In this document: positions 6,509 to 8,665 of the stretch, in pieces
Numbering within the stretch: position 1 is the first letter of the stretch
Layout of the letters: every line of letters starts with the position of its first letter
DNA from: Gammaproteobacteria bacterium
GTDB lineage: Bacteria > Pseudomonadota > Gammaproteobacteria > SURF-13
Length of the DNA stretch: 64,000 nucleotides
Assembly (NCBI GenBank): GCA_038924245.1
Contig: JBCKVB010000003.1
Coordinates: forward strand, 358-64,357
Reading direction: 5' to 3'
Notes under the pieces: model-generated
The model's database searches: none
The model's input: the letters and a program-made list of their open reading frames with translations, nothing else
What the model was told of the DNA's origin: nothing
Translations under genes and position numbers: made by a program

Positions 6509-6874
6509 ATGAGCGCAGTGCCTGAAAAAATCCTGAGCAACACCGTCACGCTGGATGCGGCGGTCACGCGGCCGTTCCCGAATTCGCGCAAGGTGTACGT
6601 AATGGGCAGCCGCGCCGACATCCGCGTGCCGATGCGCGAGGTGACGCTTTCCCCCACGCCCGCGAGTTTCGGCGCCGAACCCAACCCGCCGGTGTATGTT
6701 TATGACACCTCCGGCCCGTATACCGACCCGGAGGCGCGGATTGGCCTGCGCCGCGGCCTGCCCGCCTTGCGCGCGGCGTGGATCGTGGAGCGCAACGATA
6801 CCGAACTACTGTCCGAGATTAGCTCGCAGAAGGAGCACACGGAAGCGAAGCGTAGTGCGACGCCCCCCGCGTAG
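6509..6874 (+). pseudogene. thiC: thiC 5' part: ThiC N-terminal domain ORF, terminated by stop codons of an inserted repeat
   Basis: Translation [105 protein letters not shown] matches ThiC N-termini (E. coli, P. aeruginosa). Homology ends near 6841 and a TAG stop follows at 6872. Confidence 0.8.
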
Positions 6875-7108
6875 CCGTAGGGCCGGATGTTTTGTCGGAG
6901 TCGGAGCGGTAGCGTAGGCGGAGACAAAATAGAAGGCATCCGAAACGGCGTCAAGTCATTGTGGACGTAGTGGCGCTCCGCGCTAGTGGAGCGTCGGTAC
7001 GGACGCAGGACGAACGCGGGCCGCCGCAGGCATACTTGTCGCCATTGTTCGCTCCCGAAATCGGATGGACCCATTTCGGGTTTCGCGAAGAATGGCGACT
7101 CTCCGGGT
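6843..7108. repeat. Hairpin-repeat insertion inside thiC (270 bp counting one copy of the flanking ACGG direct repeat)
   Basis: ACGG occurs at 6839-6842 and 7109-7112. Hairpins lie at 6883-6942, 6964-6995 and 7038-7099. The last has a 15-bp outer stem GTCGCCATTGTTCGC/GCGAAGAATGGCGAC around CCCGAAAT/ATTTCGGG. Three in-frame TAG stops are present. It shares the words GCGAAGCG, GACGTA and CTAGTG with other repeats in the window. Confidence 0.75.
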
Positions 7109-8665
7109 ACGGTCGCGCGCGCGCACGACCCCAGGCTCGCGCACTTGCGTTTCGCGCACATCCGCAAGCCGCGCCGCGCCAAGCCGGGCATGAATGTCTC
7201 GCAGATGCACTACGCAAGACTAGGCGTCATCACGCCGGAGATGGAGTACATCGCCATACACGAGAACCAGCGCCTGGACGAGGCGTGCGTGCAAGGCTTG
7301 TTGCAGCAACACGCCGGCGAATCGTTTGGCGCAAGCATTCCGCGGCGCATTACGGCCGAATTCGTGCGCGACGAAGTGGCGCGCGGGCGCGCCATCATCC
7401 CCGCCAACATCAATCACCCGGAACTGGAGCCGATGATCATCGGGCGCAATTTCCTGGTCAAGATCAACGCCAACATCGGTAACTCAGCGGTCAGTTCCGG
7501 CATCGAAGAAGAAGTGGAGAAAATGGTCTGGTCCACGCGCTGGGGCGGCGACACGGTGATGGACTTGTCCACCGGAAAAAATATCCACGAAACGCGTGAG
7601 TGGATCATCCGCAATTCGCCCGTACCCATCGGCACCGTACCCATCTATCAAGCCCTGGAAAAGGTGGACGGCAAGGCGGAGGATCTCACCTGGGAGATTT
7701 TCCGCGACACCTTGATTGAGCAGGCCGAACAGGGCGTGGATTATTTCACCATCCACGCCGGTGTGCGTTTGGCTTACATACCGCTCACCGCAAAACGTCT
7801 CACCGGCATCGTGTCACGCGGCGGCGCGATCATGGCCAAGTGGTGCCTCGCGCACCATAAGGAAAGTTTCCTCTACACCCATTTCGAGGACATCTGCGCG
7901 ATCATGAAGGCTTATGACGTGAGTTTTTCGCTCGGCGACGGCCTGCGCCCCGGCTCCATTGCCGACGCCAACGACGAGGCGCAATTCGCCGAGCTGAGGA
8001 CGCTGGGCGAGCTTACCAAGATCGCCTGGAAGCATGACGTGCAAACCATGATCGAAGGGCCGGGCCACGTGCCCATGCATCTCATCAAGATCAATATGGA
8101 GGAGCAGCTCAAGCACTGCCACGAAGCGCCGTTTTACACGCTGGGGCCGCTCACCACCGACATCGCGCCGGGCTACGACCATATCACCTCCGGCATCGGC
8201 GCGGCGATGATCGGCTGGTATGGCTGCGCCATGCTGTGTTACGTCACGCCCAAGGAGCATCTTGGCCTGCCGGACAAAAACGACGTGCGTGTAGGCATCA
8301 TCACCTACAAGATCGCCGCCCACGCCGCCGACCTTGCCAAGGGCCACCCCGGCGCGCAACTACGCGACAACGCGCTGTCCAAGGCGCGTTTCGAGTTCCG
8401 CTGGGAAGACCAGTTCAATCTTGGCCTCGACCCGGACAAGGCGCGCGAATTCCACGACGAAACGCTGCCGAAAGAGTCCGCTAAGCTCGCCCACTTCTGT
8501 TTCATGTGCGGCCCGCATTTCTGCTCCATGAAAATCACCCAGGACGTGCGCGAGTATGCGGCGAAAAAAGGAATAACCGACATCGGCTCCGCTGTGGAAC
8601 AGGGAATGGAGGAAAAGGCGCAAGAGTTCAAGGAGCAAGGGTCAAACCTCTATCGAAAGGCCTGA
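6986..8665 (+). CDS. thiC: phosphomethylpyrimidine synthase ThiC, core and C-terminal domains (3' part of the split gene)
   Basis: ORF in the same frame as the 5' part. ThiC homology resumes at 7109 ([50 protein letters not shown]...) and runs to the CxxCxxxxC Fe-S motif ([11 protein letters not shown]). Candidate starts are GTG 6986 (ORF-track start, no SD) or the first ATG at 7190. Confidence 0.9.

Follow-up and report, generated by a model that had tools for sequence, protein, structure and literature searches.

The thiC gene in the window, the whole stretch of 64,000 nucleotides that was analysed, is split by a 278-bp insert in sense orientation, which is almost certainly a copy of a mobile element with its borders at 6829 and 7106 (Table 1). 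In the favored reading of the sequence, this non-autonomous element recently entered the linker, poorly conserved in sequence, that joins the "ThiC-associated" N-terminal domain of ThiC to its radical-SAM core; translation of thiC now ends at the TAG at 6872 inside the element, and a further 2-bp deletion at 7117|7118 blocks repair by precise loss of the element. Full-length ThiC would be destroyed because of this stop and the 2-bp deletion, and the gene, situated behind an intact TPP riboswitch, is probably a young pseudogene that has lost its function. A recent insertion that made a pseudogene was the first of three readings offered in a preliminary description of this DNA; it is the best supported of them, by the multi-copy nature of the element, the intact relative, the 2-bp lesion, and the excess of replacements described below.

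Table 1. Sequence features of the interrupted thiC locus (window coordinates).
Feature	Position	Strand	Evidence or description
TPP riboswitch aptamer	6366–6479	+	Rfam RF00059, full model (1–105), 63.4 bits versus gathering score of 54.3
thiC 5' part, ThiC-associated N-terminal domain	6509–6828	+	PF13667, E = 7.5e-35; colinearity with L001 and L013 extends to 6828
Left flank with family target signature CTC GCA	6823–6828	+	relative to the insertion point, C at −4 and T at −5
Non-autonomous mobile element, 278 bp, no terminal inverted repeats (TIR), no target-site duplication (TSD)	6829–7106	+	nhmmer family profile, E = 1e-80
Element central domain	6866–7020	+	long-range helix 6866–6872/7014–7020 enclosing hairpin 1 (6874–6949) and hairpin 2 (6955–7011)
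Putative promoter-like site TTGACG-17-TATTTT	6926–6954	−	consensus scan; reads towards the element 5' end
Hairpin 3, subterminal 3' hairpin	7037–7100	+	core 100% identical in five copies
thiC linker remnant, (G)TAC GGT CGC G^CG CGC G	7107–7123	+	2-bp deletion between 7117 and 7118
thiC 3' part, rest of linker and complete radical-SAM ThiC core	7112–8665	+	PF01964, 608 bits, model 2–419 of 420

The TPP riboswitch that had been recognized upstream of thiC is confirmed by an Rfam match above the gathering score; the aptamer ends 27–30 nt before the thiC start (6506/6509), and the region is also conserved in two relatives, L001 and L013. The N-terminal ORF (6506–6874) follows thiC as far as a Ser codon, TCG (6824–6826), and the CA of the next codon, then enters the element in frame and ends at the TAG at 6872–6874, giving a fragment of 122 aa. 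The 3' part is 98% identical to the intact P0134 and carries neither stop nor frameshift, in agreement with the earlier statement that the rest of thiC has no lesion. Its candidate internal starts are TTG 7145, used in the public gene call P0133, and ATG 7190, 5 residues past which the PF01964 match begins. The PF13667 and PF01964 matches share one frame and lie on separate ORFs, not on the single ORF of about 625 aa that would mark a long-form ThiC, being separated by the 278 bp with stops and by the 2-bp deletion; in the relatives P0134 and P0135, ThiC has 625 aa. Because P0133 is called as a 506-aa "ThiC", automatic annotation hides the broken gene. Looked up as exact proteins, the thiC fragments of the window and its pip product had no entry on record.

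The borders of the insert were fixed by comparison with the 98% identical thiC of an intact relative, with the constant linker length of 95 orthologues, and with 13 other copies of the element. The nearest intact relative, L013 (P0134), has a ThiC of 625 aa with 98% amino-acid identity to that of the window and a dS of about 0.07–0.10. Both L013 and L001 represent empty sites, with an uninterrupted thiC, the same gene neighborhood, and no element. The linker motif, "SSxYGRxRAxDP", was locatable in 95 orthologues, and in all of them the linker has one fixed length and a constant offset of (Y/F)(G/T), which reads Y[G/A] in 58 sequences. The 13 nt at 6829–6841 (GAAGGAGCACACG, "KEHT") are element sequence, not thiC. 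The preliminary description, which placed the insert at 6842–7111, was right about the interruption of thiC, and the alignment with orthologues that it proposed bears this out while moving the junctions to 6829/7106. The three in-frame stops that it read in the insert, at 6872, 6878, and 6968, are present and all TAG. The ACGG words thought to bound the insert also exist, at 6839–6842 and 7109–7112, but they are not a target duplication, since no family member has one; these "direct repeats" are coincidental, and the left one lies inside the element.

Superimposed on the insertion is a second lesion in the linker, which comprises 24 nt in L001 (TACGGGCGCGAACGCGCGCACGAC) and in L013 (TACAGGCGCGAGCGCGCCTGCGAT) and 22 nt in the window (TACGGTCGCGCGCGCGCACGAC). 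The lost bases are A[A/G] of a Glu codon; the deletion is 11 nt downstream of the element, in a (CG)5 run that is part of a palindrome. As a result of this deletion, the Tyr-Gly codons TAC GGT no longer share the frame of the gene that follows, and the two halves of thiC look in frame because 278 − 2 = 276. Precise removal of the element yields SSQYGRARA and then a frameshift; even its exact loss therefore leaves thiC frameshifted. Deleting instead the 270 bp delimited by eye does give a 629-aa product, which aligns without gaps with the Caulobacter ThiC (3epm), but the ends of that segment differ from those of the element. Aligning by eye in a poorly conserved linker thus produced three artefacts: the length of 270 bp, the borders at ACGG, and the claim that the exact deletion restores the gene. 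More generally, resumption in frame together with short flanking repeats can mimic an intron or an excision site through a numerical coincidence of this kind.

The element begins with GAAGGAGCACA and ends with hairpin 3 followed by 7 nt (TCTCCGG), the terminal G being common to all copies. The window copy is 79–82% identical to the full copies in L005, L007, L009, and L010 and has stops in all three forward frames, with a TAG density 6.6-fold that of the window. It contains six GTAG words in 278 nt, one of which is invariant in the family. Reassignment or read-through of TAG was rejected, as TAG is a normal stop here and ends 9 of 50 long frames. The strong hairpins noted in the insert from the outset are borne out by a fold z-score of −5.6, with hairpin 3 where the family comparison also places it (Table 1). 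The fold belongs to the + strand (−122 versus −106 kcal/mol for the − strand), whose consensus has 39 G-U cells versus 3 A-C cells. Compensatory changes affect 21 of the 84 pairs, and none of 500 shuffles attains the observed score. In the RNAalifold consensus, pair counts give 13 pairs changed on both sides in helices 3, 4, and 6 of the central domain and 8 in helices 8 and 9, which form hairpin 3; the inner stem of this hairpin is wholly swapped, with compensation, in another subfamily. The long-range helix is invariant or shows one-sided variation only. An invariant 30-nt core, GCGACGCCCCCCGCGTAGCCGNAGGGCCGG, runs through the family, and the −35 part of the putative promoter-like site is also invariant.

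The element belongs to a dispersed family of about 210–310 bp, aligned here over 315 columns and searched for with an nhmmer profile. Its copies occur in Gammaproteobacteria from the environment and on plasmids of Methylococcales and Legionella, diverged ones being carried by Methylobacter, Legionella, and Ca. Methylocalor plasmids. The members have the same 5' end (GAAGGAGCACAGG...), a hairpin close to the 3' end with 7 nt after it, and a conserved multi-hairpin single-strand fold. The exact hairpin-3 31-mer occurs on four contigs of the MAG casp150-mb.297, three times at a contig end, and L005 carries a full copy with 79% identity. A metagenome scan gave seven further element loci, and contigs derived from protein matches gave still more copies; a hairpin-3 27-mer had no match in the first metagenome scan or in one viral scan. 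The 64-kb window itself holds a single copy. Short words that the insert was said to share with the other repeats of the window gave no match above chance there, and kinship with the window's own REP-like repeat family (D1) was rejected, as the two have no similarity. None of the copies tested matches an Rfam family, on which ground a known small RNA was also rejected, and a literature search with sequence words of the element returned only chance matches in mouse papers; the family is apparently undescribed and unnamed.

The ends of the element (GAAGGAGCACAGG... and ...ATGGCGACGCAATCG) are not complementary, so that terminal inverted repeats are absent, and no full copy has a duplicated flank. 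A classical MITE, including one with a 4-bp ACGG duplication, was rejected on these grounds and is contradicted by the family ends. The target signature lies upstream of the insertion point: in all 13 independent copies C is found at −4, with A/T at −5 in 12 of 13, which amounts to a preference for insertion 3 nt downstream of (A/T)(A/T)C, positions −3 to −1 being variable. Besides thiC, the element splits purE, in sense orientation, and an esterase-like gene, in antisense orientation (L007). Its removal restores a full PurE from L005 and L004 (PF00731, model 2–147 of 148) and a continuous esterase-like ORF in L007. The element also lies in sense orientation in a porin gene, and other copies are intergenic. 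Across its 3' part runs an open frame that continues into purE, porin, cytochrome b, and ancestral thiC sequences, which led us to consider a translated, frame-consistent "restart module"; it was dropped because P0122 and P0130 use another frame, there is no conserved start or Shine-Dalgarno sequence, and the protein search is biased to open frames.

The strong fold conserved on the sense strand, the G at the element end in all copies, the sense orientation in thiC, purE, and the porin gene, and the in-frame position of the thiC halves would each suit a repair at the RNA level, in which the element is cut out of the thiC mRNA or bypassed and full-length ThiC is still made. Group I introns, IStrons, and T4 gene 60-type bypassing are precedents. 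We nevertheless consider such a repair extremely improbable. The scan for group I introns and ribozymes suggested in the preliminary description gave no match, and no group I, group II, or ribozyme model was hit at E ≤ 10 over 6700–7250 or at E ≤ 1 in L007, L009, L011, and L012. The end of the 5' exon is not a fixed U, the base at −1 being A, C, T, or G across copies, and near-identical copies have unrelated flanks, which makes exon pairing (P1 or EBS) impossible. The L007 copy is antisense inside its ORF, others are intergenic, the element has other ends than the 270-bp segment of the in-frame "excision", and precise removal of the element leaves thiC with a frameshift owing to the 2-bp deletion. 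Removal or bypass at the RNA level, the third of the early readings, was accordingly abandoned. A group II intron is contradicted by the 5' GAAGGAG (not GUGYG), by the 3' ...CG/...GG (not AY), and by the lack of a group II match in Rfam, and a T4 gene 60-type bypass by ACG 6839 being followed by GAA and no stop, by a gap of 270 nt rather than about 50, and by the left ACG being part of the element. Since the insert is a copy of a mobile element and is accompanied by a 2-bp deletion, the locus represents an ordinary gene disruption, not an intron.

An assembly chimera at the repeat or a variant of a subpopulation, the dominant genome having an intact thiC, is very unlikely, although several observations point that way: the element is repetitive, three of its four copies in casp150-mb.297 lie at contig ends, L005 runs into a flank that is not purE, and the 2-bp deletion falls in the (CG)5 run inside a palindrome. 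Both halves of thiC, however, flank a complete element on one contig in the correct order and orientation, and the independent gene call P0133, from a 66,968-nt contig, has an identical C-terminal part that starts after the insert. Because the window has only one element copy, it offers no repeat to mis-join.

Comparison with orthologues reveals that thiC shows relaxed constraint. Among the 17 differences between the window thiC and its nearest neighbor, 3 are replacements at invariant columns, versus 35 of 2536 for the other sequences (p = 0.0015); the columns were defined on 117 full-length orthologues of at least 600 aa, and the test is crude, with small counts and nearest-neighbor distances. 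Two of these three belong to the C-terminal part of the protein and lie in the core: Arg is changed to His in AIRENQ, and Ser to Phe in the cluster motif CSMCGPKFC, beside the first cluster cysteine. The pairwise dN/dS of the C-terminal part versus L013 is 0.13, a value that mostly reflects the time before the insertion.

Against a pseudogene stands the radical-SAM core itself, 1.5 kb with neither stop nor frameshift. TTG 7145 and ATG 7190 both come after the two lesions, and synthesis of a truncated core from them could therefore continue. It is thus conceivable, if rather unlikely, that the split is tolerated, as in the second of the early readings, with translation of the catalytic core, made up of PF01964 and the C-terminal Fe-S domain, beginning at one of these codons on the riboswitch-controlled transcript and the 122-aa N-terminal fragment either dispensable or acting in trans. 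The PF01964 match is complete from 5 residues after Met 7190, the 506-aa product from TTG 7145 stands in the public annotation, both lesions are confined to some 360 bp (6829–7189) with none in the remaining 1.5 kb, and the dN/dS of 0.13 is low enough to suit a retained core. Likewise, no intrinsic terminator is predicted within or after the element, and naturally short ThiC proteins that do not have the PF13667 domain exist. On direct reading of the sequence, however, no Shine-Dalgarno-like motif precedes TTG 7145 or ATG 7190, and translational coupling is unlikely because translation stops about 270–320 nt upstream of these codons. The two odd replacements in the core also argue against a tolerated split, as do the 117 close orthologues, which were all compared as full-length proteins; nearly all of the 120 ThiC matches carry PF13667, which indicates that the N-terminal domain is normally kept in this lineage. 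With thiC a pseudogene, the organism would depend on external thiamine or HMP; it is probably a thiamine/HMP auxotroph, or else lives on a crippled, truncated enzyme. Environmental bacteria commonly have dependencies of this kind, and these matter ecologically.

The ends, fold, and target features of the element suggest that it is mobilized in trans via a single-stranded intermediate, by the chemistry of an HUH-type enzyme (IS200/IS605-, RAYT-, or IS91-like). No autonomous relative with the same ends and no cognate transposase was found in the roughly 150 kb of loci examined. Two genes adjoining diverged copies were considered as mobilizers and rejected, a TnpB beside the Methylobacter copy (L014) and an IS91-like transposase beside the Legionella copy; neither shares a second end with the element, and for this reason their adjacency is probably a coincidence. 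The TnpB appears to belong to a separate IS, and at its 3' end we noted a weak, sub-threshold match to the HgcC-family RNA (23 bits, gathering score 50).

Among known systems, PATEs, the non-autonomous derivatives of IS200/IS605, resemble the element in being small and having no ORF, no TIR or TSD, and precise borders; they also have subterminal hairpins on one strand and a structured, conserved interior and are mobilized in trans. They often carry a structured omega-RNA (PMC10055086). Unlike in PATEs, no Y1 transposase or TnpB with the ends of the element was found, and no HEARO or omega-RNA model matches. The target differs as well. The insertion point of IS200/IS605 elements is immediately 3' of a 4–5-nt motif (TAM) in which every base is specified, whereas the element has only C at −4 and A/T at −5/−6, and the adjoining 3 nt vary.

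REP sequences, 20–40 nt long, lie outside genes and usually number in the hundreds. Together with the related REPIN and BIME arrangements, mobilized by RAYT (TnpA-REP), they share with the element GTAG-tagged palindromes, single-strand hairpins, and the lack of a TSD. The element differs in its length of about 280 nt, its composite build, its fixed non-palindromic ends, its single copy in 64 kb, and its intragenic position. The GTAG tag is a hallmark of REPs (PMC3733652, PMC2817692). Gene fragments with PF01797 (Y1) lie near two copies of the element (P0128 and L017) and do not share its ends; unlike in the RAYT arrangement, the element in P0128 interrupts the Y1 gene and does not flank it.

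IS91/ISCR elements and Helitrons likewise have no TIR or TSD and place a hairpin a few nucleotides from one end. As in IS91, a target motif ending in C flanks the element, and this motif is GTTC-like in 2 of 13 copies; one diverged copy, on a Legionella plasmid, abuts an IS91-family Y2 transposase gene, an IS91-like unit in which no second matching end was found. The IS91 target (GTTC/CTTG) abuts the end, whereas the motif of the element is looser and lies 3 nt away, and the termini of the element are presumably unlike oriIS or terIS. The 3-nt offset of the target motif fits neither the IS200/IS605 nor the IS91 rules. IStrons and mobile group I introns are also structured sense inserts in conserved biosynthetic genes, but the element has no RF00028 core, its flanks are unrelated, one copy is antisense, and the frame of thiC is not restored. 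Rickettsia palindromic elements (RPEs) are small palindromic repeats in protein-coding genes, housekeeping genes included; they are translated in frame with the host protein, whereas the element has stops and truncates the host ORF.

The insert thus exposes a widespread, structured family with neither TIR nor TSD that has a clear target signature and lands inside genes, and naming its transposase would be a modest but real addition. A more far-reaching reading, which we hold to be doubtful, is that the element belongs to a class of mobile elements not yet described, of which it would be the RNA- or ssDNA-encoding core. It takes its basis from the compensated fold of about 280 nt across orders of Gammaproteobacteria, the strand specificity, the 30-nt core, and the "C at −4" rule. 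The fold could act in the mobility of the element itself, as a guide-, bridge-, or ribozyme-like RNA or as an ssDNA substrate of an HUH enzyme, and it may help explain why copies are found within essential genes that are otherwise intact, thiC and purE among them.

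Downstream of a TPP riboswitch, the thiC gene is found in two pieces that share one reading frame, as seen from their ORFs and domains, and that are separated by the in-frame stops already noted in the preliminary description, all three TAG (6872, 6878 and 6968). That description placed between ACGG direct repeats an insert of 270 bp whose exact deletion would restore thiC; ACGG does occur at 6839 and 7109, and the deletion product, 629 aa long, gives a gap-free alignment with Caulobacter ThiC (3epm/4s2a, E=1e-283). Comparison with relatives moves the junctions. In the nearest ones, represented by the loci L001 (GCA_023381235.1) and L013 (GCA_038924315.1), thiC is uninterrupted and the gene neighbourhood is that of the window, with a PCMT-like gene upstream; a proline iminopeptidase gene follows thiC in L013, and the L001 contig stops inside thiC. 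The N-terminal part is 80% identical between L001 and the window, and the core of the L013 protein (P0134, 625 aa) is 98% identical, with a dS of about 0.07-0.10. A linker of fixed length, (S/T)S-x-(Y/F)G-x-x-R-x-x-D-P-x-L, is present in all 95 orthologues with a locatable motif, out of 120 inspected, and the closest relatives agree. Directly after 7106 the window keeps TAC GGT CGC G.. CGC GCG CAC GAC (Tyr-Gly-Arg-...), a stretch of 22 nt versus 24 nt in L001 and L013, the difference being the A(A/G) that a Glu codon has lost between 7117 and 7118. Read against these relatives, thiC carries two lesions: 278 bp are inserted at 6829-7106, and 11 nt beyond the insert 2 bp are deleted. Since 278 - 2 = 276, its halves look in frame. 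Bases 6829-6841 are element sequence, and the 270-bp interval, its ACGG borders and the residues KEHT assigned to ThiC all stem from aligning a weakly conserved linker by eye. Precise removal of the element gives ...SSQYGRARA and then a frameshift, so exact deletion does not restore the gene.

The sequence inserted in thiC is a mobile element. A 31-mer taken from its 3' hairpin has exact matches in the MAG Proteobacteria bacterium casp150-mb.297, on four contigs. Three of the matches are terminal on their contigs, the position in which an assembly broken by a repeat would leave them, and on one contig a full copy aligns to window 6829-7099 at 79% identity. A second pattern, based on the best-conserved stretch, brought up seven loci in metagenomes, and a protein search with element translations returned twelve ORFs running into copies, for which three contigs were fetched. 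Diverged copies reside on plasmids of Methylobacter sp. YRD-M1, Legionella antarctica and Ca. Methylocalor cossyra, and the thiC insert is the only copy inside the 64-kb window. The borders were checked by excision at two loci. In casp150-mb.297, a copy interrupts purE, whose 5' and 3' halves lie on separate contigs (L005 and L004) because the repeat breaks the assembly; cutting it out gives a complete PurE (...SAHRTP/DLLF..., joined at the slash) with an entire AIR carboxylase domain (PF00731 model 2-147 of 148). Excision from L007, another copy-bearing locus, leaves a continuous esterase-like ORF of 381 codons stop to stop, or 294 aa counted from the first Met. A shorter form of 211 bp, the same in loci L010 and L006, lacks one half each of hairpins 1 and 2 and keeps both ends, while locus L017 holds an inverted pair of partial copies with a different 3' module.

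Positions of the thiC features, the element and the other repeats (window coordinates unless a locus is named)
Feature	Position	Details
TPP riboswitch	6366-6479	upstream of thiC; Rfam RF00059, 63.4 bits (gathering score 54.3)
thiC 5' ORF, ThiC-associated N-terminal domain	6506-6874	PF13667, E=7.5e-35
thiC 3' ORF, complete radical-SAM ThiC core	end 8665	PF01964, 608 bits
D to G, N-terminal domain	about 6743-6745	GGC; approximate (from residue numbers)
R to H, AIRENQ	about 7259-7261	CAC; approximate (from residue numbers)
S to F, CSMCGPKFC cluster motif	about 8501-8503	TTC; beside first Fe-S cysteine; approximate (from residue numbers)
Element length		211-307 bp across the family
Element 5' end		G(A/G)AGGAGCACAGG
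Element invariant core		GCGACGCCCCCCGCGTAGCCGNAGGGCCGG
Element hairpins	last, 7037-7100	three main
Element 3' end		exactly 7 nt after last hairpin: GCAATCG, GCTCCGG, or TCTCCGG (window)
Sigma-70-like site	6954-6926, minus strand	TTGACG-17-TATTTT
purE copy	L005 (oriented 6912-7194) and L004 1-82	right after conserved SAHRTP motif
211-bp form	L010 (oriented 11321-11531); L006 (oriented 6690-6900)	
Inverted partial copies	L017 3375-3584 (+) and 3863-3770 (-)	
REP-like copies	30703-30773, 30796-30860, 31588-31650, 38935-38997, 63861-63923; inverted 59432-59502	45-70 nt
37-nt inverted repeat	12943-12979 and 19394-19430	84% complementary
Palindromic repeat	33292-33380; related copy 56543-56575	

The strong hairpins described earlier are borne out, the interval forming a much more stable fold than its shuffles do (-147 kcal/mol, z=-5.6), and the element fold is supported by covariation in the alignment: of 84 pairs, 21 show changes in both partners that preserve the pairing, against at most 5 in slid controls, and the share of paired cells is 97.4%, versus 89.4% in shuffles, none of 500 reaching the observed score. 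With no more than seven sequences in the set, of which three are close to identical, independent events are few. Of the two strands, the + strand, in which thiC reads sense, is the more stably folded (-122 vs -106 kcal/mol for the - strand), and its consensus structure contains 39 G-U cells vs 3 A-C cells; this bias, which is no proof, speaks for a strand-specific form that is single-stranded, as DNA or RNA. A sigma-70-like site inside the element, with a -35 portion invariant across the family, reads out via the 5' end into the N-terminal part of thiC and could drive antisense or read-out RNA.

Removal or bypass of the insert at the RNA level, which had been proposed, is very unlikely, the least probable of the readings of thiC. 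None of 4227 Rfam families, group I/II introns and self-cleaving ribozymes included, matched the window copy or those of L007, L009, L011 and L012. Near-identical copies sit in unrelated flanks, and the exon pairing of group I or II introns is therefore impossible; the L007 copy is antisense within its host ORF, several others are intergenic, and removal would leave the frameshift. Read-through was rejected, TAG being an ordinary stop codon in this genome, as was bypassing of the T4 gene 60 type, whose required geometry is lacking.

Insertion is always 3 nt downstream of a C, a rule unmatched by the IS families considered. This C, four bases before the insertion point, is found in 13/13 independent left flanks (window 6823-6828; L005, L007, L008, L009 twice, L010 twice, L011, L012, L016, L017 and L018) against a background of 30% C; A/T occupies -5 in 12/13 and -6 in 11/13, and the three bases adjoining the element and the right flanks vary among copies. 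The element has exact borders, a hairpin close to its 3' end and a strand-biased fold, and the family alignment shows neither terminal inverted repeats (TIR) nor target duplication (TSD); it is also enriched in GTAG, the tag of REPs (PMC3733652, PMC2817692). We infer that it is probably moved as a single strand by an HUH enzyme of the IS200/IS605, REP/RAYT or IS91 kind. Such features mark IS200/IS605 elements with their ORF-less derivatives, the PATEs (PMC10055086), as well as REP/RAYT and IS91-type elements, but the element does not clearly qualify as any of them, and relative to the IS200/IS605 and IS91 rules the target motif is looser and 3 nt from the expected place. No autonomous partner with the element's ends was found among the loci fetched. 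On the Methylobacter plasmid (L014 1244-2350), a diverged copy lies 70-80 nt upstream of a TnpB gene; an HgcC-family RNA is weakly matched at the 3' end of this gene, below threshold (23 bits, gathering 50), which fits a self-contained IS. On the L. antarctica plasmid (L015 2684-3832), another copy lies immediately next to an IS91-family Y2 transposase gene, at the 3' end of that gene. No second end common to the element and either gene was found; a link is unproven, and both are probably neighbours by chance. In the record P0128, a copy sits within a Y1 transposase gene and interrupts it. The family is worth noting: it is widespread and conserved in structure, it has a clean 'C at -4' target rule and none of the features of classical MITEs, and it is absent from Rfam and, as far as a search with sequence words can tell, from the literature.

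Starting behind the riboswitch, translation stops at TAG 6872, and full-length ThiC cannot be made. The gene is probably a young pseudogene, as one earlier reading had it. Among 17 differences from its nearest neighbour, three fall at positions invariant in 117 orthologues, versus 35/2536 in other sequences (binomial p=0.0015), and together with the second lesion they are evidence for real decay. A tolerated split with a truncated core still in use is possible, though clearly less probable: the core stays open for 1.5 kb, free of stops and frameshifts, the two lesions precede both TTG 7145 (where the public gene call P0133 starts) and ATG 7190, the latter 5 residues before the Pfam core, and pairwise dN/dS in the comparison with L013 is 0.13 in the core and 0.41 in the N-terminal part, values that mostly reflect time before the insertion. 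However, direct reading finds no Shine-Dalgarno sequence at either internal start. In the element, neither a downstream-facing promoter-like site nor a terminator was detected. That the split is an artefact or a minority allele is very unlikely. Disruption of a biosynthetic gene by a small mobile repeat is an ordinary event, and on the preferred pseudogene reading the more intriguing options fall.

The window carries other repeats. Six copies of a separate GTAG-tagged, REP-like family, one strand of which starts GTAGGTCGCTCCCGGCGTCCTGCCTCCCGCGAC, have no sequence similarity to the element, at odds with the short words it was said to share with them. An AT-rich 37-nt inverted repeat, in a window otherwise of 62% G+C, brackets about 6.4 kb and may delimit another mobile element or an island. 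A palindromic repeat, also AT-rich, consists of CAGAGAAAAGATACAAGAGAAAAGATACAAGG plus complement and has a related copy 23 kb away.
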